From Bdellovibrionota bacterium (GTDB taxonomy: Bacteria > Bdellovibrionota_C > UBA2361): DNA of 46,384 nucleotides. Made by a program: the position numbers and the translations under genes. The notes under the pieces were generated by a model. The model was not told the origin of the DNA and did no database searches. It saw nothing but the letters and a program-made list of their open reading frames with translations. Positions 2,763 through 45,608 of this stretch are shown one piece after another. The DNA is taken from contig JBGSNS010000013.1 of the NCBI GenBank assembly GCA_041739515.1, forward strand, positions 1-46,384. Reading direction: 5' to 3'. The stretch's first letter is position 1. The number at the start of each line of letters is the position of its first letter.

Positions 2763-2862
2763 AACAGGACTATGCCCTAGAAACCAGCTGGTCGGTAGAG
2801 TTGCTGATCCACGAGACTAAAAAGTACTTGAGGGAAGCGTCCAAACGAAGCGACTGTGCCTG

Positions 2863-3047
2863 AGTGATCCTCACGAAGCCCGATGAGATTTCACCACGAA
2901 GAACACAAAGGAATTGGCTCTCCTTCGTGATCTTCGTGGTGAACAAAATTTTTACTTGCCAATTTAACTGACGAGGTAAATCTAGATTGTTCCGCCAAGT
3001 GCCTGGTATTACCGAATTTTTGACACACTTTAGTGGGGATTCGTCAG
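2863..3047. repeat. MITE/REP-like family B element with imperfect inverted ends and an internal palindrome at 2890-2943
   Basis: 2863-2901 aligns ungapped to 45638-45676 (30/39). 3026-3047 matches 147-168. Internal inverted repeat TTCACCACGAAGAACACAAAGGA / TCCTTCGTGATCTTCGTGGTGAA. Confidence 0.7.
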
Positions 3048-3059
3048 CAACGGTACCGT

Positions 3060-4556
3060 TTACTGCGCCGATTCGCTCACGTCGGCATGTTCAACGGGCG
3101 GCGTTGGTGAAGGCTCATCAACTGTTACAGCCTTTACGAATACTTCCCTCGCCGGAAGAATCTTACCAACAACTGCTTCATCGACCGTGAATGGCTCCAG
3201 GAGCTTATCCACCCCGATCGCCCGCTGCGCCTCTGGTAACTGATTCCCAACTATAATATTTCGAACCTTGCCATCGACAAGCGTTACCTCAACGCTACCG
3301 TACGGTGCATCGAATCCAAGTCCCTGGGCATTAGGATCGAGAAACCCTTTCGCTTCTAATTTCGAAAGAGTGTCAAAGTACCCAGTAATAAACGGATCGT
3401 CTCCGGGTTTACCATCGACCAGCCAAGCTGATGAAGAAGGAGTCTGATCTGTGTCGGATTGTGTTGTTTTCCCGGAATTGCGGGATAGAGAGATGGAAAC
3501 GTCACCTTTCTTCACCACGACCGAATCAACGTTCGAGGAATCAAACGAAGCCAAAGCCTTCTCTCTATAATCATTCACATTTTTGATTACGCGAGCTTTA
3601 ACTTCCTCGGTGAACTTTACGATATGATCACTCCCGCCTATCTGTACCGCGAGCGAGTCCTTCCCATTCGCTCCTTTAAATCTTCCGAATCGAGCTTCGA
3701 TCGGCTCTCTCTTATCGTCCTTGAAGCTAATTTTTACGATTAGTTCCGGCGTCACTAGCCCATGCACCGATTGCTTTTCGGGGGTGTTCGCGTCATCCAC
3801 GAATTCCGTTGCGCGCACGGAGCGAATCGCTCGAAATACCTCGTTGATCACATCGCTACTAACAGAGACTGACTTTGGTGCGGTCATCCTCCAACGATGA
3901 TTTTGCTCAAAAACATAGCTGGTGTTCGCATCCGTCAACGTTAATTCCTTAACGTCTCCCTCATAGATAATCAGAGGCAAGCGATTACGGAAATCATCTC
4001 GTTTCTTGGAGACTACATCGTAAAGCTCAGATGGAATCAGGTATAATGCGGGATCGTTGTCGATCTGAACGTAGCGTTGCGACACGTATTCATTAATCTT
4101 GCCGAAATTTAATTCACGGACCGTGCCACTTGCGCTTGTAATCTTCAAAGTCGCTGAAGCGGGCGCGAGTCCATATACGGACATATCGTCTCCAGCTTCC
4201 TGCCCTGATATCCCATCGCGGAGCGTTAACGCTTGAAGCGCTGAGAACAAAGTATTCAGCGCTGGCGAATCTAGATCCGCGCCGGAAATACCCTCGATTC
4301 CCCAGTGACCGAGTTCTGAATCAAGCACGGTCTTTCCATCGGTATCCGACGGCGAAGTGGTAGCCTGCGAGTTGACAAAGGTGAATGTACCAGCTGGCTC
4401 AGATGACAACGTCACCGACTTAATCGTGACCGGTTTTAAATCTACAAATGGCTTTGCAATTGCTGCTTGCACAGCATCGCTTTTTAACTCCACCTGCGAA
4501 ATATAGAGTGCCAAGCCACCGAGAATAACGACTGAAACTAGAATGCGCTTAAACAC
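3060..4556 (-). CDS. DUF4340-type membrane-anchored periplasmic protein (accessory to Gld-like ABC system)
   Basis: N-terminal anchor and three repeated modules (YGLAPA, HGLVTP, LGFDAP). Last gene of a GldA/F/G-like operon, the usual position of DUF4340. Confidence 0.8.
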   Translation of the reverse strand: MFKRILVSVVILGGLALYISQVELKSDAVQAAIAKPFVDLKPVTIKSVTLSSEPAGTFTFVNSQATTSPSDTDGKTVLDSELGHWGIEGISGADLDSPALNTLFSALQALTLRDGISGQEAGDDMSVYGLAPASATLKITSASGTVRELNFGKINEYVSQRYVQIDNDPALYLIPSELYDVVSKKRDDFRNRLPLIIYEGDVKELTLTDANTSYVFEQNHRWRMTAPKSVSVSSDVINEVFRAIRSVRATEFVDDANTPEKQSVHGLVTPELIVKISFKDDKREPIEARFGRFKGANGKDSLAVQIGGSDHIVKFTEEVKARVIKNVNDYREKALASFDSSNVDSVVVKKGDVSISLSRNSGKTTQSDTDQTPSSSAWLVDGKPGDDPFITGYFDTLSKLEAKGFLDPNAQGLGFDAPYGSVEVTLVDGKVRNIIVGNQLPEAQRAIGVDKLLEPFTVDEAVVGKILPAREVFVKAVTVDEPSPTPPVEHADVSESAQ

Positions 4557-4581
4557 AGAAGTGCAACTCCATTAATTACAT

Positions 4582-6177
4582 TTACCGTGCGCCAACAGTT
4601 CTTCTACGCAACCAGACGAAAAGACCCATAAGGATTAATAATTCCGGCACAATGAAGCCGACCTGTAGCAACGTCTTAAAAGCACCTGTTCCGATCGGTG
4701 TAACGGAGCTTCGCAACTGACGAGGACGGATACTCACGTTGGTTTCCTGTCCCGTTAACCACCCGAGTGAGTTAAGCGAGAGATCTCTATGCGCTGGGTA
4801 CTTAAAGCTCGCGTTTGATAACCAACTCGAATCTCCGAACACAACGACCTTCGATACGTTATCGCCTGATTTTTTCTCATACGCGACAGCGAGCGATACG
4901 GGGCCCTTGGCATCGCCCTCACCGAAATCAGCAGATGGCTCAGCGGCATCGTAAATGGCCGCTAAATTACTCTCCCCCCATCCACTATCGCTAGTCTTGA
5001 GCAACTCGTCGTATTTCACATCTCCCGCCGAAGCGCTTGATCCAACGGAAGCGGCACCCTCAACTACGATAACATCCCGATTCTGGGTAAAGCGCTTTGT
5101 AATCTCGTGGGCACCAAAGCTTGATGCGGCAAACTGTACCGCGACCGATGGGCCAGCGAATAATTGAGTAACAACATCCAGCACAACATTTTGGCCTATG
5201 GTAATTCCGAAATGCTGAGCTAAATCGATCACATCTTGCTGACCACGGGCTTTCGTTGACACGAAAAGTCTACCACCGGAGTCTACATAGCTTTGAAGCG
5301 CTTCCATCTCCCCTGGAAACAGCGGCCCTTGAGGAGCTACCCACATCACAGCAGCGGCATCTTCCGGAATCCCCTTAGTTTTACTCTGTGAGAGATTTAT
5401 TTCCTCAATCTCAACGTGTTCATCTCTTAACGCATCGGCGAATCGTTGCATTCCTTGCGGACCAGCATCTGAAAGTGAGGGCTCGCTATGACCGCTAAGA
5501 TAGTAAACTTTCTTAGCAGCGCCGGCCGTTAATTTTAAGATTCCGTTTGTAATCGCATCTTCGGTCGCTTCGTTAAGTCTAGAGATCGCGGTATTTCCCG
5601 CAGCACCGGGCTCACCATATTCAAGATAAACTAAGTTACCACCCTTCATCCCAAGCTTCTCGACGAGCTGCATCTTGGCTCGCGGATTGACGAACTCGGT
5701 CGTTACTTTTCCCGGATTGGCGCTCTGATATAGCTTTAGAAGCTCGCGCAGATTTTCTGCTTGACGCTCAGCCTTTACATCGAAGCCAACGATTCGTAGC
5801 GGTTGTGTAAGTTTTTCAACAGCGTTGCGTGATTGCTCAGCCAAGCTGTAAACACCTTGCTCAGTTAAATCTAGGCGCTGGTCGTAACGCGTCGCGATAA
5901 AATTGAGTGATGCCAGAATTCCTACGAAGACTACGATGTAAACCGCTGATCCACCCCAAAAGCGCCAACTCCTCCCGGTCTCCATCCGGTTCGGTGCTCC
6001 GCGTTTAGCGAAAAAGAAGCCGAAGATCATCATTGCTAGACCGATCACCAGGTGTGCGGTGGTATAGATCTTACTACCGGCGAAAAAGCTAGCTGTTTGA
6101 AGATAGTCCCCGATGAAAAGTCCTAGCAATCCAAAGAAGAAAATCACTGCCCCGATAAATTTACTGTATGCTGCCAT
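4582..6177 (-). CDS. GldG-family / ABC_transp_aux ABC transporter auxiliary component
   Basis: N-terminal TMs, DLTEQGVYSLAEQS, VYYLSGHSE, VVVFGDSSWL, LNSLGWLTG, C-terminal TM ending RRR. Start placed at the ATG at 6177; the ORF track starts at TTG 6183. Confidence 0.88.
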   Translation of the reverse strand: MAAYSKFIGAVIFFFGLLGLFIGDYLQTASFFAGSKIYTTAHLVIGLAMMIFGFFFAKRGAPNRMETGRSWRFWGGSAVYIVVFVGILASLNFIATRYDQRLDLTEQGVYSLAEQSRNAVEKLTQPLRIVGFDVKAERQAENLRELLKLYQSANPGKVTTEFVNPRAKMQLVEKLGMKGGNLVYLEYGEPGAAGNTAISRLNEATEDAITNGILKLTAGAAKKVYYLSGHSEPSLSDAGPQGMQRFADALRDEHVEIEEINLSQSKTKGIPEDAAAVMWVAPQGPLFPGEMEALQSYVDSGGRLFVSTKARGQQDVIDLAQHFGITIGQNVVLDVVTQLFAGPSVAVQFAASSFGAHEITKRFTQNRDVIVVEGAASVGSSASAGDVKYDELLKTSDSGWGESNLAAIYDAAEPSADFGEGDAKGPVSLAVAYEKKSGDNVSKVVVFGDSSWLSNASFKYPAHRDLSLNSLGWLTGQETNVSIRPRQLRSSVTPIGTGAFKTLLQVGFIVPELLILMGLFVWLRRRTVGAR

Positions 6178-19460: not shown

Positions 19461-20477
19461 TTAGTTGACCTCACATAATGCATATCCACTGACAAATCCC
19501 GGTAGCGCTTGGACCAAAATGACTCGATCTCCGACTTTTAACGTGTGGGCGATTCGCTCATACGCGAAGAAGCACCCGGCCGAGATCATATGCCCGTTAT
19601 CATCGAATGAGCTACCGAAGCGGGAGATTGATTGACCCTGTGCTACTCGTGCGGCCATTCCAGAACTCGCCTCGCCGCAAGCCAGCACAACATGCGCACC
19701 GTGTAGCTTGTGTTTGAAGACTGCTTTCGCACACATATCGGCGGTTAGCAGTTCGAGTTGTTGAGGAAAATTATCCAATTTGGCGATCAGGGGTAAAAAT
19801 TGATCGACTACGAACGAACCTTCCGCTTTTCCGTGAAAAGCGCTTTCGGCATCTAATACAGTTAGTTTTCCACGATGTTTACTTGAGACCACACAAGCCG
19901 CTGCAGCGTCGCAAAAATGCCAGCGCTCATCTCCGCCTTTTTCAAAATTAATTCTCGATGTCGGTGTTGAGCCTGAAACCAGCAATATGTACTCCGGAGT
20001 CCGGTCAATTCTCCAGCGCGACAACGACGCAAGGTGCTGTGGGACCAATCCACCACCACCGATATCGTAAGAGGGCACCTTAAGCCCTAATCGATCCGCT
20101 ACCCGCTGCCCCTCCGACGGAGTAGTTTGCCAAGGGGTCGAGCAATCTCCGATCACCAACCCAAGCTGATCTGCGCTGATACCCGCCTGGGCGATCGCAA
20201 TTTTTGCAGCAGCGAGACAGATATCCGTCGGGCTCTGATTAGTTCCTTGAATTACTCCGTCGATATCCGCGTTTTTCGTTAAGAAAAGATAATCCCTATG
20301 TAACGCCGATCTACGGATGCTTCCAACCGCTAACGAACAGTTCGGTATCCCCAACCGTTCAAAATCTGATTTCTCTAATGCGGTCTGCCCGAAGGCGGTA
20401 CCGATGCCTAAAATGTTCAACACAAGGGTCACCAATCTATAGATATTCATCGATACTGGCAATTTTCGGGTTTTCAA
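19461..20477 (-). CDS. KAS-III-fold protein lacking catalytic residues (pseudoenzyme / PqsB-like partner)
   Basis: Aligns with its neighbour (ILGIG, AGISADQLGLVI, TPSEGQRVADRLG, FCDAAAA, GKLTVLD, GDRVIL). Cys, His and Asn positions read GGGG, VLACGE and NGHMIS. True start is probably between 20420 and 20450. Confidence 0.8.
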   Translation of the reverse strand: MKTRKLPVSMNIYRLVTLVLNILGIGTAFGQTALEKSDFERLGIPNCSLAVGSIRRSALHRDYLFLTKNADIDGVIQGTNQSPTDICLAAAKIAIAQAGISADQLGLVIGDCSTPWQTTPSEGQRVADRLGLKVPSYDIGGGGLVPQHLASLSRWRIDRTPEYILLVSGSTPTSRINFEKGGDERWHFCDAAAACVVSSKHRGKLTVLDAESAFHGKAEGSFVVDQFLPLIAKLDNFPQQLELLTADMCAKAVFKHKLHGAHVVLACGEASSGMAARVAQGQSISRFGSSFDDNGHMISAGCFFAYERIAHTLKVGDRVILVQALPGFVSGYALCEVN

Positions 20478-21564: not shown

Positions 21565-23106
21565 TTATTCCGAATCGTTCTCCCAACCCTCGCTCAAGCC
21601 TCTGTCATCATTTCCATATCCATCGTCACATTCGTTGTCCGCCATTTGATCCATATCAGCATCTGGATTTGATGGGGAACGGAGCACTTGAGAATGAAGC
21701 TCGAGCGGACTCCCCGCTTCCTGAATCAACGTCCTTCGGACCTCTGAAAATTCCTCCCAATCACCTTTTGCATCCTCAAAAAATTCCCAGGGTCCATCCA
21801 CAGATGACAATTTCGAGAAGTACGATGCCGATTCTAAAAATTTTAAGATTCGATCCAACTCCGATAAATTCGGCTTATCAGCAGCTGAAATCAGCAATTG
21901 AGCTCGCATATATAGGGCATCAGCGCACATCCGATTTATATCGATTCCAAGTATCCCCGCAGCATTGACTCCGTTCCCCTCAGACGCCTCAGATAAAATG
22001 GAACATTCGAGAAAACTAAGTCCGTCCATTAAATGCTCGTCGGCATGAGCGGAAAGAGGTCTCCCATCGTAAACGATAGATGATGAACGCGACCAAACAT
22101 AGAAATTAATCCCCTGAGCAATCAGTACCGCAGCAAAGAGGGTGCTTCTAAGATTCAAGGAGTCATCGGGCATACAATCTAATCCGCGACGTAAGATCAT
22201 TAGCATCCCTGCTGCTCGCGAATTCATCTGTTCCTCGCGAGCCAGCGAAACTAACTTCAATGTTGATGTAACTATAGCTAGCGGAGAATCATACGCATGA
22301 AGCTTATGCAGGATTGAACGCCCTCTCGCGCTTGCCTCCAAATCCTCCAAATTATTGTCGGAAAGATTCTCGAATAAGTTACTGATTAAGGCATCAAATT
22401 CCGGACGATTCTGTGAGTAAAGTATGATGAATTCACGACAAAGCTTATCCGTTTCGACTTTCCGAACGTTTGTATCGGCAAGCTCCATATCCACATCATC
22501 ACTACCTCCGGCGCTATGATCGTAGCGTTGGTGGCTGCGCGGCAGAGATTCGATGGCTGGCACTTTACTCGCAAATAGCCTGCATTTTGCGGGAATAATT
22601 CCCATTCGCTCAGATTCTCTTATCCTCCAACTAAGAACCTCTGCAAACATTGAATCGATGAGATCTGACTGCGGCTCGCATTCACAAATAGCAGCCAAGG
22701 CGTGCGCTGCAGAAACGTTGTCGTCGTGCTTACGTGAGAGAGAATACGCTGACAGCAATAATTCTGAGCTAGCTTTCGGAGCGACGTCTCGAATCCGCCA
22801 TCCCAATTCGAGAATCACGTTAGGGGCGAATCGTAGCGCGTTACGCTCAAAATCTGCCGTAATAAGTGGAGCAGAGCGAACAAAATTTTTAACGAACTCG
22901 GAAAGATGTCCAAGTGCGAAAACCATTCCATCATCGCTATTTCGAAGTAAATTTAGATGTTCATGCAAAAAACGCAGATCAGCCCTACCCCATCGCAACG
23001 CATCGCTGAGATGAGATCGAGCAACATCCAGAATTGGAGTCCATGCGATATTACCGGCGCTAGGAGAACTTTGATTTCGACTCGGATCCAACGTCATGGC
23101 CAACAA
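21565..23106 (-). CDS. Hypothetical protein (513 aa, helical, acidic tail)
   Basis: Long ORF with no recognised motif; Leu/Ala/Ser-rich helical composition. Confidence 0.65.
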   Translation of the reverse strand: MLAMTLDPSRNQSSPSAGNIAWTPILDVARSHLSDALRWGRADLRFLHEHLNLLRNSDDGMVFALGHLSEFVKNFVRSAPLITADFERNALRFAPNVILELGWRIRDVAPKASSELLLSAYSLSRKHDDNVSAAHALAAICECEPQSDLIDSMFAEVLSWRIRESERMGIIPAKCRLFASKVPAIESLPRSHQRYDHSAGGSDDVDMELADTNVRKVETDKLCREFIILYSQNRPEFDALISNLFENLSDNNLEDLEASARGRSILHKLHAYDSPLAIVTSTLKLVSLAREEQMNSRAAGMLMILRRGLDCMPDDSLNLRSTLFAAVLIAQGINFYVWSRSSSIVYDGRPLSAHADEHLMDGLSFLECSILSEASEGNGVNAAGILGIDINRMCADALYMRAQLLISAADKPNLSELDRILKFLESASYFSKLSSVDGPWEFFEDAKGDWEEFSEVRRTLIQEAGSPLELHSQVLRSPSNPDADMDQMADNECDDGYGNDDRGLSEGWENDSE

Positions 23107-24253: not shown

Positions 24254-25366
24254 TTAATGGGACGGACTAACCCTGAAAATTGGCTGAATACTACCTTCAG
24301 GCTTGGGATTTGAGACTTTTACCAGTAATGGTTCAGCCAAACTGACCAATTGCTGCAAACAGCGAAGCGCTCTTCTCAGCGAATCCTTCTGTAAGGAGAT
24401 CTCGGATTGAATGCTGGGACCAAACAACGAAACGATTGCTCGCTGCGCCATACCTGCGATCAGCGAGTCGGAGGAACCAGATCTTAACAGAGAGACAATC
24501 GAAGCGCAGTCCACCGATACGCGATGTAACGATCCGGGACTCACACAAGAGGGGGGTGGTATCGTTGCGATTCCTAGCTGAATATCGATTAAATGCGCGA
24601 TCAGTGAACGTTCGAAATGTCGATAGGATGAGTTTATCTTCTCACTCTTTAGGGGCTTTATGAATCTCCGGAGAGACTCGATCTTAGAGATTAGCGGAAT
24701 AACAGCTCCTGCATTATAATCTCTGCAGAGTTCTTCGACTAACACTACCCAACCTCCACGCTTCTCTTCGCCGAATAATTCCTTAACCGACAGCAACACG
24801 ATCCCATGTTCATTTATGTCAAACGTAGGTGCCTTTCTCACCTCGTAATTAACTCTGTCGATCGCCAAATCACACGCATCGGCGAAGACCTGAGAAATAG
24901 CCTCCATTTCTTCGTTTTTTTCCCTAGGAATATTATTAAGTCCGGCTATCGCTGATATCGCATCGTCATTTCGGGAGAATACAATCCTCTGCGCTTGATG
25001 TGGTTTGACAGGCTGCTTCGATTTTTTTGCTGAATCAGAACTCTTAGCTGAGTTAGAAGAGTTGCTAGTGCGCCGCGCGTGCTCGACTGCTTCAATTATG
25101 ACATCGGCCAGCTCCGATATCGAGTCGACGGGTCGCCGGGCAACCGCTCGCTCCAAATAGTCAATCGCTTGGCACGAGGTCAGCTGTCGCTGAGGATCGC
25201 GCACTGAAGACGCGTTTGTCCTTAAGCATCCACACAACTCTGAAAACTCAACAGCCGTAACTGCTGCGCCTTTACAACTTAAGACTAAGTACGCAGATAA
25301 CCCATCGAATCCGTCGTCGATTACTGCGGGATTATGGCTAGCGACTGAGTCGCGCTCGACACCCAT
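24254..25366 (-). CDS. Hypothetical protein (370 aa), divergent from the helicase-RecJ pair
   Basis: Long ORF, central Ser/Lys linker, no recognised motif. Confidence 0.6.
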   Translation of the reverse strand: MGVERDSVASHNPAVIDDGFDGLSAYLVLSCKGAAVTAVEFSELCGCLRTNASSVRDPQRQLTSCQAIDYLERAVARRPVDSISELADVIIEAVEHARRTSNSSNSAKSSDSAKKSKQPVKPHQAQRIVFSRNDDAISAIAGLNNIPREKNEEMEAISQVFADACDLAIDRVNYEVRKAPTFDINEHGIVLLSVKELFGEEKRGGWVVLVEELCRDYNAGAVIPLISKIESLRRFIKPLKSEKINSSYRHFERSLIAHLIDIQLGIATIPPPSCVSPGSLHRVSVDCASIVSLLRSGSSDSLIAGMAQRAIVSLFGPSIQSEISLQKDSLRRALRCLQQLVSLAEPLLVKVSNPKPEGSIQPIFRVSPSH

Positions 25367-25488: not shown

Positions 25489-27669
25489 GTGACCGATATT
25501 GCGCTACCCTCACCATCCAGCTTGATCAAGGCTTACGACCCGTGGCGCGAACGCGAAGTATTGGTCTCACCCGACGATCCGCGTCTAGTAGGAGCACAAG
25601 AGCAAAACCTTGTTGACTTATCACTTCGTGCGCAGCTCGGCCTTTCAACGATTCATCCCGCACTCGGTAAACTTGACGACGAACAGTTGGCTGCATTTAG
25701 ACTTGAGATAAACTCTATCGGTTCCGCCGCTCTTCAGGCGCCCACTGGAGCCGGTAAAACCTTAATATCACTTTGCTTAGCAGCGTATTTCTTAAAACTT
25801 CATCCGGATAAGCACGTATTGATCAGTTGCCCCACGAATTTGATTATCGATCAGTTTGGACGAGCCGCGTGTGGCGACGAGAAACAGAACTCAGTTTTTA
25901 ATGATCCGTCTCAATTCGTCACGATCTTTTCCCAAAGAGCTGCGGCGGTACGATCTGCTACGTATCAATCCCCAGCCGGTCGAATAATTATTGGATCAGC
26001 TAGCTCACTCTCCAGAGATGCGCTTTCCAACACGATCGACCCTGAACGTGTGTCGCTTGTAATTATTGATGAAGCGCATCTTGCCCGAAAACAGGAAGCA
26101 GCAGCTGTACTTAGAGAGTGGTGTAACAATTTTGGTGTACGCACCTTGCAGTGCTCGGCGACCTTGACCCGGACTCAAAAGCCAACCTTAAAACATATCG
26201 AAGCTTTTATTGAGCACGCAGAGGTTTCTCGATTCACGCAGCTATCGAATCGCTACATCGAAGGGTTTACGGTTTCGCGAGAGCCGTTGCCAGCCGATCC
26301 CACTAAACCTTCTTGGAAACCAGATTTCAAAACTCAGATTCAGTCGCTAAAGGGAATTGCATTGGATGCGATCGTATATCCGAAGAACGGAAATCCAAAC
26401 GCTCATTTGCTGCGCGGTTCAAAGTTTAAAGTTCACGATCCAGAGTTTTTGAATCTTCCACAAAGTGTAGCAGAAGCAGCTCTTCTTATAGCCCGTGATC
26501 TGGCGGAGCTGTTAGACTCAACTTCGAGAGATCTGCAAAACGATGAAAGTGAGGCGGCTAACGATCTCTACAAGCAATGCAGACGGCTTCGAAAAGCGAT
26601 TAGGCTTGATGATGAAAAACTCGTGCCCTCAGCGCAGTCGTTTCAAATGTTCGCAGAGGCCTTGAAAGCGTATGCAGAGTGTGATGGCTCATCTCAAGGG
26701 GAGGGTGCCGTCTATTTGGATCGTGTTCGAAATGCCTACACAGCGGTGACCTTGAGTCATTTACATCAGCTACTTACGACTCAGCCACGAATTGGATTTT
26801 TAGAATTCGCCGGAAATCTACTATTTGAAGAGCGAATTGGTATTTCTAAGGCTCATCATCGAGCGCTTTTTCCACCGGGACGAGCTCCGAAATGGTGGAT
26901 GGACATGTCTCGTAACACTCCATTCGATGCTTTAAATCAGCTAATCCCTGCGGATTCCACCGCATTTACTTTGAAATCCTGGTTAGCAAACAACGGCGTT
27001 CAGGTAGAGAGTGCGGAGACGGCTCGGGAAGCGTTTTTCTCATCGCGCCGAAAAGGTCTAGGTGTTGCTGCGAAACAACTTATTAAATGTAGCGATTTCG
27101 ATGAACATCCGAAGATTGGCTGGATACTAGCCAATATCAAAGGGTCAATCGTAGCAAAAAACCCTGGACAGATGTTAGTTTACTGCGCTGAAATTATCCC
27201 AACGCTTTATTACACAGAAAAAATTGCACGCGAAGCAAGGACACTGGTCGTACCGTTGATTGGCAACAGCGGACTCACAGCTAGCGAGCGCAGAGCAAAC
27301 GCAGAATTGGCACGTAGCGGCCAGGCCTCAGTTGTATGTTCCACATCGATCGGCGGAATCGGAGTAGATCTCCAAAATCTACGATACTTATTTATTACGG
27401 AACCTACCGCAAACCTTCGTGAGGTCGAGCAACTCTGGGGCAGAGTTGGACGGATGCTAGGCGAAACGGGGATGATCTATATCACCGGCACGCATGGATA
27501 CCGTGATTGGGTGCGTGATTATGCAAGGCGATCGCAGCAAATTAGTCTGGACGTTCTCCCCCCCGGCCAGCATGAGAGCTACCAGCGCAAAATTTCCGAT
27601 CCTAACTATAAGCCGAAACGACGAAGCGCATGTCGTCGCGAGGTAGTTGAGCAGCGAGGATTATTCTGA
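25489..27669 (+). CDS. SF2 DEAH helicase, Hef/Mph1/FANCM (RIG-I-like) type, without ERCC4 nuclease domain
   Basis: Motifs I APTGAGKT, Ia CPTNLIIDQ, II VSLVIIDEAH, III SAT. Long helical insertion ending EHPKI. Motifs V STSIGGIGVDL, VI QLWGRVGR. C-terminus QRGLF. Confidence 0.8.
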   Translation: MTDIALPSPSSLIKAYDPWREREVLVSPDDPRLVGAQEQNLVDLSLRAQLGLSTIHPALGKLDDEQLAAFRLEINSIGSAALQAPTGAGKTLISLCLAAYFLKLHPDKHVLISCPTNLIIDQFGRAACGDEKQNSVFNDPSQFVTIFSQRAAAVRSATYQSPAGRIIIGSASSLSRDALSNTIDPERVSLVIIDEAHLARKQEAAAVLREWCNNFGVRTLQCSATLTRTQKPTLKHIEAFIEHAEVSRFTQLSNRYIEGFTVSREPLPADPTKPSWKPDFKTQIQSLKGIALDAIVYPKNGNPNAHLLRGSKFKVHDPEFLNLPQSVAEAALLIARDLAELLDSTSRDLQNDESEAANDLYKQCRRLRKAIRLDDEKLVPSAQSFQMFAEALKAYAECDGSSQGEGAVYLDRVRNAYTAVTLSHLHQLLTTQPRIGFLEFAGNLLFEERIGISKAHHRALFPPGRAPKWWMDMSRNTPFDALNQLIPADSTAFTLKSWLANNGVQVESAETAREAFFSSRRKGLGVAAKQLIKCSDFDEHPKIGWILANIKGSIVAKNPGQMLVYCAEIIPTLYYTEKIAREARTLVVPLIGNSGLTASERRANAELARSGQASVVCSTSIGGIGVDLQNLRYLFITEPTANLREVEQLWGRVGRMLGETGMIYITGTHGYRDWVRDYARRSQQISLDVLPPGQHESYQRKISDPNYKPKRRSACRREVVEQRGLF

Positions 27670-27671
27670 GC

Positions 27672-29423
27672 ATGCGAGCGGCTTACTCAAAGGTTCCGGA
27701 ACTGACGCTTCAAACCCCGGAGGTTCTGCGAGTACTTCCGCCCAAAATTTTAAACACCGCACAGCTCCAAGAGAAGAGCGCTCTAATAGCAAACGGCACT
27801 CACCCACTATCAGCTGAGTTTTGTGCGAGACGCGAAATTTGTGATCCTCCCTCGTTTCTAAAGCCTTCGCTCGATGAGCTTCCGTTTCCGCTAAAACTTC
27901 CCGGAGTTTCTGAAGGTTGTAAAATTGTAATGAAACACAGAAAGAACGCCGAGAGACCGAAGGCTTTCATCGCTGCGGACTTTGATGTCGATGGAATTAC
28001 CTCGGCTGCGATCGTGTACTCAGCGTTATCGACTCTCGGATTCGACGTAACGACGAAAACTCCGTGTCGTCAACGAGAGGGGTACGGGTTTAATAAGCGG
28101 CTTTTAGATGAGGCCGTTCAGTCCGGAGCAAAGCTGCTATTCCTGCTTGATTTCGGCACTCAGCAAAAAGAGCTAATAGAAGCGGCTAAAAAGCGAGGTC
28201 TCGATGTGATCGTAATCGATCATCACTTGTGCGCCGCTGATGAAAGAGCGTCCCCCGATGCATTGATCAATCCACGTGGTATGTACTCCGGGTGCACCTT
28301 CATGTCAGCCGGTGGTCTAAGCTATATGTTCTGCTTAGGCTTAAGCGAAGTGCTCCCGAATGTAGCATTCAAAGAGGAGGAGTGGCTCGGGCTTGCCGTG
28401 GTCTCAACCGTTGCGGATGTGGTTCCGTTGGTAGAGGAGAATAGAGCACTGGTCCGCCACGGACTTCAGTTTCTTGCAGAAAATGAGGGGCTTCAAACAC
28501 TATCGAAGAAGCTGAATTTGAGCGGTGAAATCACTCCAAGCGATGTAGCGTTTCGCCTAGCTCCTACGATGAACGCTCCCGGAAGAATCGTAGAGAAAGG
28601 AGGTGATCTTGTCTTAGATCTCTTAACCTCAAAGACAGCTCTCACCGTAGCTGGAGAAGAAGCCGCTGACTTGTTGATTGCGTGCAATTCAGCGCGAAAG
28701 AAGCGTGAAAAAATCGACTTGGCGTTGGCTGAGAACATCATTGCCAGAACTGGACTTAAGCGAGCCATCTGCGTCGCAGACGATCGTTTCGACCCAGGGC
28801 TTGCTGGATTGGTCGCTGCTAGACTCGCAGAACGTTATCACAGACCGGCAGCGGTAATAGCGCTGTGTGAGCGTCTGGGAGGACGTGCATCAGTACGTAG
28901 CGGACCGATTTTCAATACTCACTTAGCGCTGGAGCGGTGCGCTCAGTTCCTTCTGCGGTTTGGCGGGCACCATGCTGCGGGTGGTTTTACAATTACGACC
29001 GATAATGTACCTGCGTTTATCAACGCTTTTAATGCCGAAGCGCAAGCACAACTCGGGGATTTCGTGCCACACGAAGTAGTCTCTGATTTTACGACGTCCG
29101 CTGAGGAACTAAGCTTAAACGCTGATAAGCTTCTCAACGGATTGTCAGCTTGCGAACCATTCGGCTCAGCTCATCCAGCTCCGATTTGGTTTGTGCCTCA
29201 GGTAAAATTGAGAAAAGTTCACGAAATCGCGCACCATCATCTTCTTCTTGAGTTCGGTGATAACGATGGACGATTCGGAGCGTATCTTTTTAATAATCCA
29301 CGCCATCCGATTAAGGGTATGTACGGCAAGTCGCTTGATATCGGCGTTAAACTATCACGCGCCAGACTTAGCAATGAAGGTGGAAGAAGTGCGCCGATGA
29401 TAGAGTTCTGTGGAATTAGGTAG
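27672..29423 (+). CDS. recJ: RecJ-family ssDNA 5'-3' exonuclease (DHH/DHHA1)
   Basis: DFDVDGITS, REGYG, LLDFG, IDHH, TVADVVPL..ENR, LAPTMNAPGR, GLVAARL, FGGHHAAGG, EPFG..HPAP. Begins 2 nt after the helicase stop. Confidence 0.92.
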   Translation: MRAAYSKVPELTLQTPEVLRVLPPKILNTAQLQEKSALIANGTHPLSAEFCARREICDPPSFLKPSLDELPFPLKLPGVSEGCKIVMKHRKNAERPKAFIAADFDVDGITSAAIVYSALSTLGFDVTTKTPCRQREGYGFNKRLLDEAVQSGAKLLFLLDFGTQQKELIEAAKKRGLDVIVIDHHLCAADERASPDALINPRGMYSGCTFMSAGGLSYMFCLGLSEVLPNVAFKEEEWLGLAVVSTVADVVPLVEENRALVRHGLQFLAENEGLQTLSKKLNLSGEITPSDVAFRLAPTMNAPGRIVEKGGDLVLDLLTSKTALTVAGEEAADLLIACNSARKKREKIDLALAENIIARTGLKRAICVADDRFDPGLAGLVAARLAERYHRPAAVIALCERLGGRASVRSGPIFNTHLALERCAQFLLRFGGHHAAGGFTITTDNVPAFINAFNAEAQAQLGDFVPHEVVSDFTTSAEELSLNADKLLNGLSACEPFGSAHPAPIWFVPQVKLRKVHEIAHHHLLLEFGDNDGRFGAYLFNNPRHPIKGMYGKSLDIGVKLSRARLSNEGGRSAPMIEFCGIR

Positions 29424-39661: not shown

Positions 39662-40744
39662 TCACCAGGCTAGGCTACCTGCCGTCTGGTACTCTGTCAC
39701 TCTGGTCTCAAAGAAGTTCTTCTCCTTGCCAAGATCGATCGTTTCACTCATCCAAGGGAACGGATTCTTCGATCCGTACTGAACCTTCAATCCGATGCGC
39801 TCAAGACGGCGATCCGCGATGAATTGTACATAATCTCTGAACGATGGGGCAGAAAGCCCCAAGATTCCACGTGGCAAGCAATCCTCTGCGTATTGAACCT
39901 CAAGCTCTACGGCTTCCTTGATCATCTGAAGCATTTCGTTCTGGAACTCCGGTGTCCAAACATCCGGATTCTCCTCTTTGACTCCGTTTATCAAATCGAT
40001 TCCAAAGTTAAGATGGATAGACTCGTCTCGTAAAATGTATTGGAACTGCTCTCCGACACCGGTCATTTTATTCTGCCGGTGAAACGACAGCATCATTACG
40101 AATCCGCTATAAAAGAAGATCCCTTCCATGATTACATAGTATCCGATGAGGTTCTTTAGAAACTGTTGCTTCCCTTCAAACGTCTCCGTTGTGAACTTCG
40201 GATCCATGATCGAGCTCGTGATATCCATCTCGAACTTATCTTTGTTATGAATCGTATTCACTTCGTTATACATGTTGAACACTTCGCCTTGATTCAACGC
40301 CAAAGATTCACAAATATAGTGAAACGTATGGGTGTGAACGGCTTCTTCAAAAGCTTGTCGAAGCAAATACTGTCTGCACTCAGGGTTCGTAATGTGCTTG
40401 AAAATTGCGAGTACAATATTATTGCCAACTAAGCTCTCTGCGGTGGCAAAAAAGCCTAAATTGCGCATGATTACTCGACGCTCATCCTCGGTCAGATTGC
40501 CGGATTTCCAAAGCTCTATATCCTTGCCCATCGCTACTTCGGTAGGTAGCCAGTTGTTAGCAACACCGTTTAAGTAATGCTCCCATGCCCACTTATACTT
40601 AAGCGGCATCAACTGATTAACGTCTACCTGATTGTTGTTGATCAGGCGTTTCATACTCACGTCAACGCGTTTCTCTGTGCCACCAGCAATCTCTGAACTA
40701 ACTTTCTTATTGTCACTTCCGTTATTATCTTCCCAACCCAACAT
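39662..40744 (-). CDS. nrdB: Ribonucleotide reductase beta subunit, Chlamydia-like class Ic (Mn/Fe)
   Basis: TAESL (Glu ligand), EEAVHTHTF (Phe at the radical-Tyr position), [31 protein letters not shown]. Start placed at MLGW (40744) with GGAGAG upstream. Confidence 0.95.
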
Positions 40745-40774
40745 ATTTCGTCTCTCCAAAATTTTGTAGATAAG

Positions 40775-43700
40775 TTACTGGCAACTCTCGCAATCACCGT
40801 CGAGGCTACACATAGCTCGCGGCAATTCTGACTTACCTCGAGCTCCACTCTCGGCTTCGCTACCAGCCGGAGTTGTCGTCACCGATACGGTCTCAACCTT
40901 CAACGTAGTAGTGGTAGTTCCAGAAGCGGTATTTACTACCTCCTCCTCAATCCTGCCCACTTGAACGTTTGATGATGCTGATTTGTTCTTCATCCAACGT
41001 GGTTGCATCCCGCGCTTGTTAATATCAAGCGTTGATTTTTCGATCTGTGTCGCCCCAAGTGAGCGTAGATAATAGGTGGTCTTAAGCCCCTTCTTCCACG
41101 CTTCGACGTACATGTCGTGCAACCGCTTACCGGATGGCTGAGCCATATAGAGATTCAGCGATTGTCCCATGTCGATCCACTTTTGGCGACGACTGCCGCA
41201 CTCGATTAACCACTCTGGTTCGATTTCGAAAGCGGTGAGATAGACCTTCTTTACCTCGTCCGGCACCCGCTCGATCTCAAGCAAAGAGCCGTCAAAGTAT
41301 TTAAGATCCTCGATCATCTCATCATCCCATAATCCAAGCCCTTTTAAGGTTTGAACCAAATGAATATTCGGGACAGTGAACTCACCGGATAGGTTCGACT
41401 TCGCGTACAAATGTTTATACGTAGGCTCAATCGACTGAACAACTCCGGTGATATTAGAGATCGTAGCGGTAGGTGCTATCGCCATCGTATTGCTGTTTCT
41501 AAGACCGAAGTCCTTTATGGCCTTCCGAACCGGCTTCCAATCGAGGCGTACCGTACGATCCACATCTAAGTTGCCACCCCGCTCCGCTGCGAGAATATCC
41601 AAAGTATCGATCGGCAGCAGACCGCGGTCCCACTTTGATCCCTTAAAGGTAGAGTAAGCACCCTTCTCTTTAGCGAGCTCAGTTGAAGCTAAGATAGCGT
41701 TATAAGAGATAAGCTCCATGCTCGAATCAGCAAATTCAACCGCCTCTGGGCTAGCGTAACTGATATTCTGAATATACAGAGCATCCTGGAATCCCATGAC
41801 ACCAAGACCGATCGGCCTGTGTCGCATGTTAGCCGTTTTAGCTTCATCTGTAGGGTAGTAGTTAATGTCGATTACATTATCGAGCATTCGCACCGCTGTG
41901 CGAACTGTCTTAGCCACCAATGCCTTATCTAGTCCATTTGGCGTGCAGTGTGCAGATAAATTCACCGATCCGAGATTACACACAGCAGTCTCACTGGATG
42001 ACGTGTTCAATAGAATCTCAGTACAGAGATTAGAGCTGTGCACCACGCCTACATGGTCCTGTGGCGAGCGAAGATTGGACGGATCTTTGAAAGTAATCCA
42101 AGGGTGCCCAGTTTCAAACAACATGCTGAGCATTTTGCGCCACAAACCGACAGCCTCCACGCGCTTGAAGAGTTTCAATTCACCGCTTTCAGCTTTCGCT
42201 TCGTACGACACGTAACGCTCTTCGAACGCCTTACCGACTAGATCGTGCAGATCCGGAACATCGCTAGGGCTAAAAAGAGTCCAATAGCCATTATCCAGCA
42301 CCCGCTTCATGAACAGATCCGGAATCCAGTTTGCGGTGTTCATGTCGTGAGTACGACGACGTTCATCACCGGTATTTTTGCGCAGCTCTAAGAAATCCTC
42401 GACGTCCAAGTGCCACGTCTCAAGGTACGCACACATTGCTCCCTTACGCTTACCGCCTTGGTTCACGGCAACAGCGGTATCGTTTGCAACCTTAAGGAAA
42501 GGAATCACCCCTTGGCTTCTACCATTGGTACCCTTGATGCGAGCGCCAGTTGCGCGCACGCTAGTCCAGTCGTTTCCTAAACCACCGGCCCACTTAGACA
42601 ACAGAGCATCGTCCTGCACGCACTTAAATATGTGCTTTAGGTCATCCATTACCGTCGTCAAATAACAGGAAGAGAGCTGCGGATGCGGCGTTCCTGCATT
42701 GAACAGAGTCGGAGTGCTTGACGTGAAGTGAAATTTTGAGAGCACCTCATAAAACTCAATAGCGCGCTCGTTCTTTGCGTCACCCTCATTAGCGGCAAGC
42801 CCCATGGCTACGCGCATCCAGAAGATCTGCGGAGTTTCCAAACGACGATCTTCGCTATGGATTAAATAACGATCGTAAAGCGTCTGCGCCCCTAGATACG
42901 TAAACTGCAGATCTCGCTCGAGCTTTAAAGCCTTTGAAAGTTTTTCAAGATCAAAGCTCAGCAACGCCTTATCCATACGATCGAGTTCGATCGCTTTCTT
43001 AATAACTGACTTAAAATACGCCTGGTGCGCCGATCCCAGCTTTGTATCATGCGCCGCAACTCCCATAGTTTCGCGATAGATCACATCGAGCAATAAACGC
43101 GCTGCGACGTTGCTATAATTAGGCTCAGCTTCGATCTTAGCGCGAGCCGCCATGACGCTGGAGGTATCGACCTCATGCCACTTTACTCCCTCGTAAAGAT
43201 TCTTGATCGACTCTTCTAAAACCACCTCAGGGTTGGTATCAGCCAAGCCTTTGCAAGCGTAAGAAATTCTACGGCGCAGTTCTCCTTCCGAGATGCTCCC
43301 CACATCTCCGTTCTGGAGCGTCATTTTGAAGATCACCCCTACGTCCTCGATTTTTAGTTGGCGCGCCTCGCCGCTCGAGCCCGAACTACTAGTATGGTTC
43401 GAATGAACAGAAACTTCAGATTCCGATGACGCTATCGATTCCTTCGCTCGCAGAGCTGCACGGGTAGCGCGATATATGATGAAATCCTTTGCCTCTTGAT
43501 AGAGGCCCTCGGCCATCATCTGGCGCTCCACTTCATCCTGAATCAGCTCTACATGAAGCGTCTTACCGTCCTTAACGAGCTCCTGTGCTCGACCTACAAC
43601 TTTGGCGGTGAGCAGATTGACCGCATCAACGATCTCCTGTGGGGTAGAACCGGTAACTTTCCGCGAAGCTCGAATTGCCTTCTCGATCGCAGTGGCGATC

Positions 43701-44224
43701 TTTGCCGGATTAAATCTAACTACCGATGCGCCATCTCTGCGGGTAATTTTTAGATTCAACGGAGAATCTTCACGCAGCGCCTTACGCTCATCGCGATATA
43801 CTATATAGCTGCGGGCTATCTCGTAGTGACCAGCCTCCATTAGCTTAATCTCTACCACGTCTTGAATCGCTTCTACGGTAAGAGCAGCGCCGGATCGAGC
43901 TGAGGTGGCCTGCTCAACACATTCCTGAACCACCTCTTCAGTCACCGACTGCACCATCGAGTGAGTCTCTTGCGGAAGCGCACTGGTATCTGGAATTAAG
44001 AGAACTTCACGGAAAGCAGCTTCAATGGCACTTAGCACTCTGTCTCTACGAAACGGAACGATCATTCCGTTACGCTTCACTACGATAATCTGAGAGAGCC
44101 GCTCGGCGGCTTTCTTATTCAAGGGACCCTTCGCTAGAACGCCAGGGGATCCCGCCGCTTTAGAACTATCCGACCCAGATGAATTTGATCCTGTTGATTC
44201 AGACCCTGATACTACGGAACTCAT
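40775..44224 (-). CDS. nrdA: Ribonucleotide reductase alpha subunit with multiple N-terminal ATP-cones
   Basis: Cones starting VVKRNG and ITRRDG plus a degenerate third. STPTLFN, SSCYL, SNLCTE, AVCNL, APTAT, KTTYY, C-terminal CESCQ. Confidence 0.97.
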   Translation of the reverse strand: MSSVVSGSESTGSNSSGSDSSKAAGSPGVLAKGPLNKKAAERLSQIIVVKRNGMIVPFRRDRVLSAIEAAFREVLLIPDTSALPQETHSMVQSVTEEVVQECVEQATSARSGAALTVEAIQDVVEIKLMEAGHYEIARSYIVYRDERKALREDSPLNLKITRRDGASVVRFNPAKIATAIEKAIRASRKVTGSTPQEIVDAVNLLTAKVVGRAQELVKDGKTLHVELIQDEVERQMMAEGLYQEAKDFIIYRATRAALRAKESIASSESEVSVHSNHTSSSGSSGEARQLKIEDVGVIFKMTLQNGDVGSISEGELRRRISYACKGLADTNPEVVLEESIKNLYEGVKWHEVDTSSVMAARAKIEAEPNYSNVAARLLLDVIYRETMGVAAHDTKLGSAHQAYFKSVIKKAIELDRMDKALLSFDLEKLSKALKLERDLQFTYLGAQTLYDRYLIHSEDRRLETPQIFWMRVAMGLAANEGDAKNERAIEFYEVLSKFHFTSSTPTLFNAGTPHPQLSSCYLTTVMDDLKHIFKCVQDDALLSKWAGGLGNDWTSVRATGARIKGTNGRSQGVIPFLKVANDTAVAVNQGGKRKGAMCAYLETWHLDVEDFLELRKNTGDERRRTHDMNTANWIPDLFMKRVLDNGYWTLFSPSDVPDLHDLVGKAFEERYVSYEAKAESGELKLFKRVEAVGLWRKMLSMLFETGHPWITFKDPSNLRSPQDHVGVVHSSNLCTEILLNTSSSETAVCNLGSVNLSAHCTPNGLDKALVAKTVRTAVRMLDNVIDINYYPTDEAKTANMRHRPIGLGVMGFQDALYIQNISYASPEAVEFADSSMELISYNAILASTELAKEKGAYSTFKGSKWDRGLLPIDTLDILAAERGGNLDVDRTVRLDWKPVRKAIKDFGLRNSNTMAIAPTATISNITGVVQSIEPTYKHLYAKSNLSGEFTVPNIHLVQTLKGLGLWDDEMIEDLKYFDGSLLEIERVPDEVKKVYLTAFEIEPEWLIECGSRRQKWIDMGQSLNLYMAQPSGKRLHDMYVEAWKKGLKTTYYLRSLGATQIEKSTLDINKRGMQPRWMKNKSASSNVQVGRIEEEVVNTASGTTTTTLKVETVSVTTTPAGSEAESGARGKSELPRAMCSLDGDCESCQ

Positions 44225-44594: not shown

Positions 44595-45608
44595 ATGGAT
44601 AAAACTTTCGAACAGGATACGATCGTATCGCACAATATTTTAAATTATCTCTTCGCCGGTTATCAGGGCGACTTCACCTATGCAAGCGTTCTCTTAGACC
44701 TCTCTGCAAATCTCGCTATTAAGTTTCCTGATGTTTCCGTAGAGCGTCGCGACGAAGACGCAAAAATCTTAACCAAAGTACTCGAGTGGTTGCAGGGGCT
44801 TGAACGCGGAGATTGTTTGTTTGCATCTAGTTGGACAACCCCGCAAACATTCGACTCGCAAAAAGCGATAAAATGGCTTGAAGAATTAAAAAAGCCGATA
44901 GCCGTCTCCTCTACAAATTTACGTCGAATAGTGCGAGAGCCGGATGTAAGACTTTCGCCCTCAGATTTTGCTGAATTAGTTGCCTCGTTTGCGCGCTTTG
45001 CGTACTCCGGAAAGTTTTACAATGAGGGGATGCTTTACGCTGCGAATCTTTTGGGGCGCAAGGATATCGTTGAAGCACTTAAGGCGCCAATTGACCAAGC
45101 AAACGCTGAGATGAATCATGCCGGATATTTTATTCATCTTCTTAAAACTGAGGGCGTAGAAAAGTTTCCAGCGGACTATTTAGCAGTGTTACTCGATGAT
45201 GCTAAGCGAGCACCTGCGATTTTTAACGCACAGATTCACGATATTAATCAAATTCTAGCCCAGTTTAACGGCGGTATAACGTGGGCCTCAGTCGATTTTA
45301 GCCCCGCAGAAAGCGATCTTTGGATAGCTCAGTTTTTCAAACCGGGCGAAGCGGGTTATTGGCGTGCATACGAAATCGGACCAACTACTGCTAGCGAATG
45401 GCGCAAAGTCGGATTTAAAACTCCCGGAATTGCGGCGGCGTGGCGAGATGCGAATTTCGATCCGGAGACCGCTGCTATCTGGGCTAGCAAAGGTTCCGCG
45501 CCGGCGCTTGCACGCAAATGGCTCGATGCTGGGCATAGCCCGACTGACGCGCTCTCATATATGTCGAAGGGGATTTTGGATCCGGCGAATCTTCCGAAGG
45601 GGGAGTAA
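44595..45608 (+). CDS. Hypothetical protein with C-terminal 13-residue Trp repeats
   Basis: AAGGAG RBS; about 8 repeats of WxxxxFxPxxAxx at the C-terminus. Confidence 0.8.
   Translation: MDKTFEQDTIVSHNILNYLFAGYQGDFTYASVLLDLSANLAIKFPDVSVERRDEDAKILTKVLEWLQGLERGDCLFASSWTTPQTFDSQKAIKWLEELKKPIAVSSTNLRRIVREPDVRLSPSDFAELVASFARFAYSGKFYNEGMLYAANLLGRKDIVEALKAPIDQANAEMNHAGYFIHLLKTEGVEKFPADYLAVLLDDAKRAPAIFNAQIHDINQILAQFNGGITWASVDFSPAESDLWIAQFFKPGEAGYWRAYEIGPTTASEWRKVGFKTPGIAAAWRDANFDPETAAIWASKGSAPALARKWLDAGHSPTDALSYMSKGILDPANLPKGE

Follow-up and report, generated by a model that had tools for sequence, protein, structure and literature searches.

A Hef/FANCM-like helicase coupled to an extra RecJ paralogue in a Bdellovibrionota bacterium, with fused counterparts in related genomes

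What is a Hef/FANCM-like helicase doing next to a RecJ gene in a bacterium? The question is raised by two genes in a 46,384-nucleotide stretch of DNA from a bacterium labelled Bdellovibrionota (contig JBGSNS010000013.1 of assembly GCA_041739515.1; the whole stretch is referred to below as the window), one encoding a superfamily 2 (SF2) helicase and the next a divergent bacterial-type RecJ paralogue, which we call RecJ2. Hef, FANCM and Mph1 are regarded as fork remodellers of archaea and eukaryotes, the corresponding bacterial tasks being ascribed to RecG, RuvAB and RecQ/RecJ. We find that the locus is probably a helicase–exonuclease DNA-processing module, made of a new bacterial family with the Hef/FANCM fold and a dedicated RecJ paralogue, and that it has two fused counterparts in other genomes of the phylum. 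The genome of the source contig is denoted G000; other G numbers denote species genomes of its phylum in the collection searched.

The helicase gene (25489..27669, + strand) has a GTG start and a TGA stop and encodes 726 amino acids (aa), and the RecJ2 gene (27672..29423, + strand) has an ATG start and encodes 583 aa. According to the coordinates of the open reading frames (ORFs), the junction reads TGA, 2 nt, ATG (27667..27674, + strand), so that both ORFs and their spacing are as described in the initial annotation, which was made from the letters of the window. The sequence GAGGA lies about 11 nt 5' of the RecJ2 ATG, within the last codons of the helicase gene, and no terminator-like site was found between the two genes. 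Sites resembling promoters or terminators are about as frequent around the operon as expected by chance. By eye, no shared upstream motif was seen in the three loci compared, and a LexA-type box cannot be claimed. The GC content of the pair is similar to that of its flanks, i.e., its composition is native.

The first step is to establish which known enzymes the helicase resembles most. The best NCBIfam family is the Hef nuclease NF010337 (53.5 bits; curated cut-off 610), and a search of all PDB sequences gave a single match, 1wp9, which is the helicase domain of P. furiosus Hef (E = 2.1e-12); the RecQ model TIGR01389 gives only 18.6 bits. In the scan of seven family members, Hef was the top family in five and a close second to RecG in two, with members other than the helicase itself scoring 27.7–94.7 bits on NF010337. 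The 27 next-best proteins, taken as an outgroup, all have Hef as their top family: 16 are above the Hef cut-off, 15 of these (the exception is P0038) also matching the archaeal Xpf nuclease model, six are helicase-only (445–579 bits) and five are weak (87–174 bits on the Hef model).

The predicted structure gives the same picture. The AlphaFold2 model of the helicase, built on an eight-member alignment (pLDDT 86.7, pTM 0.84), is disordered only at residues 1–9, 33–43 and 708–726. Foldseek ranked the FANCM translocase first (9el5_A, E = 7.6e-23) and the Hef 1wp9 chains next (best E = 6e-21), followed by RIG-I, LGP2, MDA5, Dicer-2 and DRH-1. With VIA-align, 482 of 535 residues aligned to FANCM (Z = 24.8, rmsd 3.2) and 466 of 475 to Hef (Z = 22.2), against just 350–400 residues for generic two-RecA SF2 proteins (Z about 20–21); since the FANCM and Hef alignments exceed what two RecA domains can give, the inserted domain aligns too. 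The predicted fold is thus RecA1, inserted helical domain, RecA2, superposable on the solved Hef/FANCM/RIG-I-like members. Hef and FANCM are the nearest known relatives of the helicase by sequence and by fold, ahead of RecQ, XPB and ResIII enzymes, as the initial annotation had anticipated.

Kinship is one matter and membership another. With the helicase as query, HMMER run in full against 1.84 billion cluster representatives returned 346 proteins at E ≤ 1e-3 and just 9, the query included, at E ≤ 1e-30, which makes the family proper very small: one relative is 44% identical, a handful are 33–36% identical, and some are fragments. A word-indexed protein search recovered only the helicase itself among 8000 scored candidates, and a four-sequence helicase alignment run against contigs yielded only the G032 contig among genome contigs and none among metagenome contigs. 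In a quick maximum-likelihood tree of 49 rows, 13 Hef and six helicase-only Hef-like rows form one clade (100% SH-aLRT), and the helicase family stands outside it as its own 100% clade. A score below the cut-off, the absence of the XPF nuclease and a branch outside the Hef clade all place the helicase outside Hef itself; we assign it to a small, new family of bacterial proteins that falls within the Hef/FANCM/RIG-I-like group and by analogy may work like Hef without being a member.

It should be added that the Hef-likeness of the family is already implicit in automatic annotation. The JGI label "ERCC4-related helicase" is attached to six members, spread over four clusters, of the split helicase (that is, the form encoded separately from RecJ) and to one fusion, and a SAR324 bacterium encodes a related helicase. 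A look-up in the ESM Atlas returned mostly archaeal helicase clusters, which we treat as a lead only. At the level of annotation, then, the statement that Hef-like helicases are strictly archaeal and eukaryotic, from which the initial annotation had started, does not hold.

Does the chain look like that of a working motor? The translation contains motif I (QAPTGAGKT), motif II (IIDEAH), motif III (SAT), the tetrapeptide EHPK directly before the second RecA domain, STSIGGIGVDL, and motif VI (QLWGRVGR), and every motif quoted in the initial annotation was found in it. All parts of the helicase lie on the + strand. The N-terminal region (residues 1–60, 25489..25668) carries a family-conserved Y-x-P-x-R-E-like motif and a predicted beta-hairpin, whose strands (13–17 and 22–26) are modelled with moderate confidence only. 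RecA-like domain 1 (residues ~61–245, 25669..26223) holds motifs I, II and III and matches Pfam ResIII/DEAD at residues 79–230, and RecA-like domain 2 (residues ~541–690, 27109..27558) holds motif V (TSIGGIGVDL) and motif VI and matches Helicase_C at 556–656. The gap of about 300 residues between the two Pfam matches is occupied by the inserted domain (residues ~246–540, 26224..27108), delimited from the secondary structure of the model and from alignment columns. It consists of a short beta-rich part followed by a large helical Hel2i-like part that ends in EHPK and bears the family signatures FPPGRxPxWW, GTPY, FF and LGxAA. No nuclease domain was found with Pfam, nor any XPF/ERCC4 or HhH match with Pfam and NCBIfam, and the chain ends 71 residues past motif VI, which agrees with the earlier description of a helicase lacking a C-terminal nuclease.

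Conservation follows these landmarks. Motif I is GxGKT in all full-length family members, and invariant positions in the eight aligned members include D194 and E195 of motif II, S223 and A224 of motif III, and Q648, G651, R652, G654 and R655 of motif VI. Within the insert, F461, G464, P467, W469, W470, T477, P478, F516, F517, L524, G525, A527, A528 and H540 (the H of EHPK) are invariant in the same members. Across 52 family and Hef-like sequences, conservation of at least 90% was found for G89, K90, D194, E195, H540, P541, Q648, G651, R652 and R655. Several motifs had been read initially as diverged and as a sign of modified activity; the eight-member alignment shows them instead to be variants typical of the family rather than lesions, and on this ground the ATPase is probably active. 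A separate observation concerns the beta-rich stretch of about 55 residues in the insert (residues ~262–315, 26272–26433), which is present only in the helicase and its 44%-identical relative P0004 and absent in the six other aligned members.

The second question is what kind of RecJ stands beside this motor. Pfam reports three domains in RecJ2, all on the + strand: the DHH catalytic domain (PF01368, residues 99–214, 27966..28313, 61.3 bits), DHHA1 (PF02272, residues 369–457, 28776..29042, 31.9 bits) and the RecJ OB-fold domain (PF17768, residues 486–563, 29127..29360, 32.8 bits at a cut-off of 27), in the region of which the model places beta strands (505–582). TIGR00644 covers RecJ2 over model positions 4–532 of 546 with 313.6 bits, below its cut-off of 396.9. 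Canonical genes are present in the same genome as well: a recJ on a different contig (444 bits on TIGR00644) and, elsewhere, a recQ (791.6 bits). Residues invariant between RecJ2, three other paralogues and canonical RecJ are D103, D105, D107, D160, D183, H184 and H185, together with D249 and the GGH of DHHA1 (G431, G432, H433). The initial annotation had called the RecJ intact and had raised the possibility of a second, canonical recJ in the genome: all catalytic DHH/DHHA1 residues are indeed kept, the canonical gene is present, and the description is to be refined in that RecJ2 is not the housekeeping copy.

The fold of RecJ2 is that of bacterial RecJ. Its AlphaFold2 model (pLDDT 88.5) matches S. 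aureus RecJ (8y30_A, TMq 0.82), D. radiodurans RecJ (5f56_A, 0.77–0.78) and full-length T. thermophilus RecJ (2zxo and 2zxr, 0.71–0.77), with TMq of at most 0.50 for archaeal RecJ/GAN-type chains; the archaeal RecJ model NF053576 gives 69.1 bits at a cut-off of 360. In a collection of 5.8 billion proteins, 12 RecJ2 clusters were found at 37–70% identity (284–909 bits), with ordinary RecJ following from about 226 bits down, which makes RecJ2 about as rare there as the split helicase with its roughly 10 clusters. A metagenome scan with the RecJ2 alignment kept 80 loci, all at most 36% identical and mostly ordinary RecJ genes. In a tree of 55 rows, RecJ2 is a clade of 14 rows (100% SH-aLRT), separate from the canonical RecJ of the phylum (95%). 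As judged from its sequence and model, RecJ2 is an extra bacterial-type RecJ paralogue that appears catalytically intact, and from its family it would be a 5'-3' exonuclease acting on single-stranded DNA.

Another coupled RecJ-like gene was noticed in a close relative. On contig C145 of G003 (1373-5124, − strand), a 663-aa RecJ-like paralogue overlaps by 4 nt an upstream gene for a 587-aa protein whose DEDD 3'-5' exonuclease domain is of RNase D/NrnC type (best PDB match 9qrf_A, E = 1.4e-17).

Is the adjacency of helicase and RecJ2 kept elsewhere? We searched 124 species genomes of the phylum (labelled Bdellovibrionota) with a profile of the helicase family and found the split helicase in four, full-length in G000, G032 and G084 and as contig-end fragments in G004. 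RecJ2 is directly downstream in all four carriers, which come from three families of the order, and the two genes are coupled start to stop in each, with a 4-nt ATGA overlap in G084 and G004 and a 1-nt spacer in G032; the adjacency pointed out initially is thus a conserved one. The RecJ2 partners score 313.6 (source genome), 330.2, 293.1 and 339.5 bits on TIGR00644, all below the cut-off, and a canonical recJ (444–474 bits) is also kept in every carrier. Between G000 and G032 the identity is only 29% for the helicase and 38% for RecJ2. The flanking genes differ among the carriers: a peptidyl-prolyl isomerase, SURF1, DapB and an M16 peptidase in the source window, an ECF sigma factor in G084, and a histidine kinase in G004. 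Since the pairing is kept while the flanking genes differ, helicase and RecJ2 travel as a cassette. In four more cases a helicase cluster and a RecJ2 cluster sit on contigs of equal length (13909, 10970, 16012 and 8876 bp), which suggests further pairs.

The same two protein types are also found in one chain. In G002, a genome of the source family that has no split pair, an ORF of 1391 aa (contig C46, 2124-6299, − strand) has an N-terminal RecJ (TIGR00644, 319 bits) and a C-terminal part whose best helicase family is NF010337 (Hef, 126.5 bits). This arrangement, fusion A (RecJ N-terminal, Hef-like helicase C-terminal), occurs in 11 of the 124 genomes, full-length or cut by contig ends, and the eight full-length ORFs read have 1391–1462 aa. 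Synteny between the split pair of G000 and the G002 fusion was considered and rejected, the upstream genes being unrelated. A second arrangement, fusion B, occurs in nine genomes, with full-length ORFs of 1275–1319 aa; in the example from G092 (1316 aa, contig C5, 4465-8415, + strand), Pfam reports DHH, DHHA1, RecJ_OB, DEAD and Helicase_C in one chain, with motif I in the same context, LQAPTGSGKT, that the split helicases show. A HIRAN domain was not reported by Pfam in the fusions examined. The protein collection holds 13 fusion B clusters, and the next match after them is an Asgard Hef-type protein. The fusion carriers checked through separate RecJ matches also have an ordinary RecJ of about 580–675 aa. 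The three RecJ groups come out in the trees as one 100% clade each, and so do the three helicase groups. Of the three forms, 24 of the 124 genomes have one each and none has two, although with these numbers their mutual exclusivity is suggestive only. In three fusion A proteins (G104, G103 and G094), the pattern GxGK[TS] found no Walker A after residue 550, with motifs II and VI present; a variant P-loop may explain this, or else the choice of pattern or cut-point.

Fusions of this kind are classical evidence that RecJ and the Hef-like helicase act together, and because relatives of the two proteins are joined in one chain, the Hef/FANCM-like helicase and RecJ2 very likely work together on DNA. 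The opposite explanation is a chance adjacency or a pair of decaying genes, with a helicase and a RecJ copy that are independent of each other or inactive. The absence of the module from 100 of the 124 genomes would fit it. Both ORFs, however, are intact with all catalytic motifs present, the start/stop coupling spans three families of the order in spite of 29–38% protein identity, which implies long purifying selection, and 20 other genomes fuse the same two protein types. This explanation is disfavoured by these results, and we consider it highly improbable.

If the two proteins work together when separate, the helicase may have a means of holding its partner, and the end of the chain offers a candidate. 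The split helicase ends in a basic tail of low model confidence (27559..27666, + strand; pLDDT < 50 from residue 708) that closes with Leu-Phe. All split helicases (nine rows, eight distinct) have 55–71 residues after motif VI, with 7–11 K/R within the last 45 residues and L-F or L-W in the final six (9/9 rows). Among the 17 fusion ORF C-termini read, such a tail was seen only in G092. As the tail is present where RecJ is separate and mostly absent where it is fused, it may be a tether or docking peptide for RecJ2. A beta-clamp-binding motif was also considered; the resemblance is loose, and the distribution (all split forms vs 1 of 17 fusions) fits a RecJ2 tether better.

How does this module compare with known helicase–nuclease partnerships? 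Archaeal Hef (P. furiosus, T. kodakarensis, H. volcanii) has the same core layout of RecA1, inserted helical domain, HPK and RecA2. Unlike in Hef, the insert here is about 300 residues long, far longer than that of Hef, with conserved motifs of its own, and the helicase carries neither the XPF/ERCC4 nuclease nor the HhH domain. HAN is reported to be a DHH-family nuclease that binds the disordered region of Hef and is stimulated by Hef (PMC5717133). The helicase described here likewise ends in a disordered stretch, and a DHH-family nuclease is linked to it, the partnership being written into an operon or a fusion. HAN is described as having a DnaJ-type zinc finger, an S1-like domain and an OB fold N-terminal to DHH (PMC6158738), and a 3'-5' polarity (PMC6158738, PMC5717133). 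RecJ2, unlike HAN, has only DHH, DHHA1 and RecJ_OB, and is of the bacterial type. The proposal of a bacterial Hef–HAN analogue in the initial annotation therefore survives in part: the Hef-like kinship stands and a joint function gains support from the pair and the fusions, whereas Hef membership and a HAN-type partner are not supported. Because the partner is a bacterial-type RecJ and not HAN-type, the likeness to Hef–HAN is best seen as an analogy and not as shared descent.

FANCM, Mph1 and Fml1 have a three-part motor with a Hel2i insert, as here, and FANCM is the best structural match. This insert of FANCM is reported to recognise DNA branch points (PMC12263834). The differences from FANCM are a sequence identity of 15–17%, the absence of MHF, FAAP24 and MM1 partner regions, and a bacterial host. 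Searches of the literature, with supplementary files outside their scope, on bacterial Hef, FANCM and Mph1, on RecJ paralogues, on ERCC4-related helicase and on Bdellovibrio RecJ found neither the pair nor the fusions; the relevant papers among those listed for Hef and RecJ in bacteria dealt with archaeal HAN.

Within bacteria the natural comparison is the RecF pathway, in which RecQ and RecJ together resect the 5' strand at gaps, ends and stalled forks. RecJ2 shares the fold and catalytic residues of the solved bacterial RecJ proteins; the helicase, unlike the motor of that pathway, is not RecQ-like, and the genome has a separate true RecQ and RecJ. The E. coli genes recQ and recJ do not share an operon.

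On these grounds we propose that the pair is an accessory machine acting on the cell's own DNA, for the processing of branched DNA or stalled forks and for 5' resection, a reading to which we assign about an even chance. The Hef/FANCM-like motor would bind a branch point, gap or end, and its ATP-driven translocation or unwinding would free a 5'-ended strand. The co-translated RecJ2, a Mn/Mg-dependent DHH exonuclease with an OB fold, would then thread the freed strand and degrade it from 5' to 3'. The logic would be that of RecQ with RecJ in the RecF pathway and of Hef with HAN in Thermococcus, realised with another helicase and an additional RecJ copy. We infer the binding of the helicase to RecJ2, possibly through the basic Leu-Phe tail, and likewise what the pair acts on, in which direction each enzyme works and what role the pair has in the cell.

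The background of the phylum bears on what such a machine could be for. RecG was found above the TIGR00643 cut-off in none of the 124 genomes, G000 included, and the only strong matches to the RecG model are Mfd-like ORFs, mostly of about 1100–1240 aa, that align to RecG positions ~225–607. The usual bacterial translocase for branch migration and fork regression thus appears to be missing from the phylum, and another branch-migration motor could be useful there. The phylum-wide absence of RecG (0/124), although no dedicated search stands behind it, would be noteworthy in itself. With a Hef-like translocase tied to RecJ, a RecG-less phylum, a counterpart in Hef–HAN and a possible tail tether, we offer only tentatively the broader idea that some bacteria run a Hef/FANCM-style pathway for branched DNA or forks.

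Several observations weigh against the reading of the pair as an accessory machine for own DNA. Only 24 of the 124 genomes carry the module in any form, so that it is dispensable; for the same reason the idea that it is the phylum's substitute for RecG, which is missing in all 124, was rejected. A canonical RecJ and RecQ are already present in the genome, which leaves no evident need for a further pair of resection enzymes. In these quick trees the RecJ groups linked to a helicase do not join into one clade, nor do the three helicase groups, and the deep branches are unresolved. The trees therefore do not establish a common origin of the three architectures, and the tie between RecJ and the Hef-like helicase may be either ancient and fast-evolving or have arisen more than once. 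Finally, the patchiness of the distribution, the number of architectures, the length of the branches and the lack of synteny would equally suit defence genes.

These last features lead to the main competing explanation, already offered as an alternative in the initial annotation, that the pair is an anti-phage or anti-plasmid system in which foreign or abnormal DNA, for example phage or plasmid replication intermediates, would be engaged by the Hef-like motor and passed to RecJ2 for destruction in a Cas3-like manner. The sparse occurrence of the three forms (4, 11 and 9 of 124 genomes), different neighbours in each carrier, long branches with architectural turnover and the redundancy with the housekeeping RecJ and RecQ would all be expected of it. 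Like Cas3, PbeA (Pbe) and HamB of Hachiman, the module couples an SF2 helicase to a nuclease and is patchily distributed. The helicase also has a weak partial similarity to the PbeA and Cas3 helicase domains in PADLOC-DB 2.0 (38–41 bits; best PbeA, 40.7 bits, residues 64–229). These matches, however, are partial and span generic helicase motifs only, and RecJ2 has no match in PADLOC-DB 2.0. Unlike Cas3, PbeA and HamB, the module has no full-length PADLOC match, no HD or PD-(D/E)XK nuclease and no defence-island context.

The surroundings of the module do not resemble a defence island either. The neighbours of the pair in the source window are housekeeping genes, as are those beside fusion B, and in the flanks of fusion A three ORFs were scanned with Pfam, the sole match being a GT87 glycosyltransferase. 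At 1e-5, none of 12 neighbouring ORFs matched a defence model of the PADLOC library, which dates from 2023 and does not reach undescribed defence systems. Neither the 21 ORFs scanned in the window nor the neighbours of the fusions showed an integrase, a transposase or a restriction gene, and the composition of the pair is native. The nearest structural relatives are genome-maintenance translocases, yet RIG-I-like immune sensors share the fold group. Thus, of the pairing and the defence-island link that had been suggested for survey, the former was found conserved (4/4) and the latter did not emerge (0/12). Overall, we give a defence function a little over one chance in four and regard it as a serious rival.

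The RIG-I-like relatives also open a third possibility, namely nucleic-acid salvage or an RNA-directed role: the processing of R-loops or RNA–DNA hybrids, or the turnover of prey or imported DNA, with RecJ2 being mainly degradative. The RNA helicases RIG-I, Dicer and MDA5 belong to the same fold group, FANCM-family translocases are reported to remove R-loops (bioRxiv 10.1101/248161), and the phylum label of the relatives is known for predators that digest prey DNA (PMC3593177). The coupling of another RecJ paralogue with a DEDD 3'-5' exonuclease in a sister genome points in the same direction. In the matches by fold and by sequence, however, the DNA enzymes FANCM and Hef outrank the RNA sensors, the core of bacterial RecJ is complete in RecJ2, OB domain included, and by eye neither N-terminus resembles a secretion signal. 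We consider such a role improbable. The processing of branched or stalled DNA by the coupled motor and exonuclease accordingly remains the reading we prefer.

Other features of the window were recorded in passing. A class I ribonucleotide reductase large subunit of 1149 aa (40775-44224, − strand) has two ATP-cone matches before the catalytic barrel, and the gene for the small subunit (39662-40759, − strand) adjoins it. Four ORFs of 513, 370, 338 and 337 aa (21565-23106, −; 24254-25366, −; 19461-20477, −; and 44595-45608, +, respectively) have no Pfam and no PADLOC match, and two of them also have no NCBIfam match.

As a whole, the results mean that a bacterial lineage has a motor of the FANCM/Hef fold hard-wired to RecJ, in the form of a coupled pair and of two kinds of fusion, in a family whose members are currently labelled just "DEAD/DEAH helicase", "ERCC4-related helicase" or "RecJ". 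If the module acts at forks, it would provide a compact, soluble model, of two proteins or one chain, for the transfer of a strand from a Hel2i-type branch-point motor to an exonuclease. It would also exemplify recurrent helicase–RecJ coupling and point to how branched DNA is handled in RecG-less bacteria. If it serves in defence instead, it would be a new system made of repair parts.

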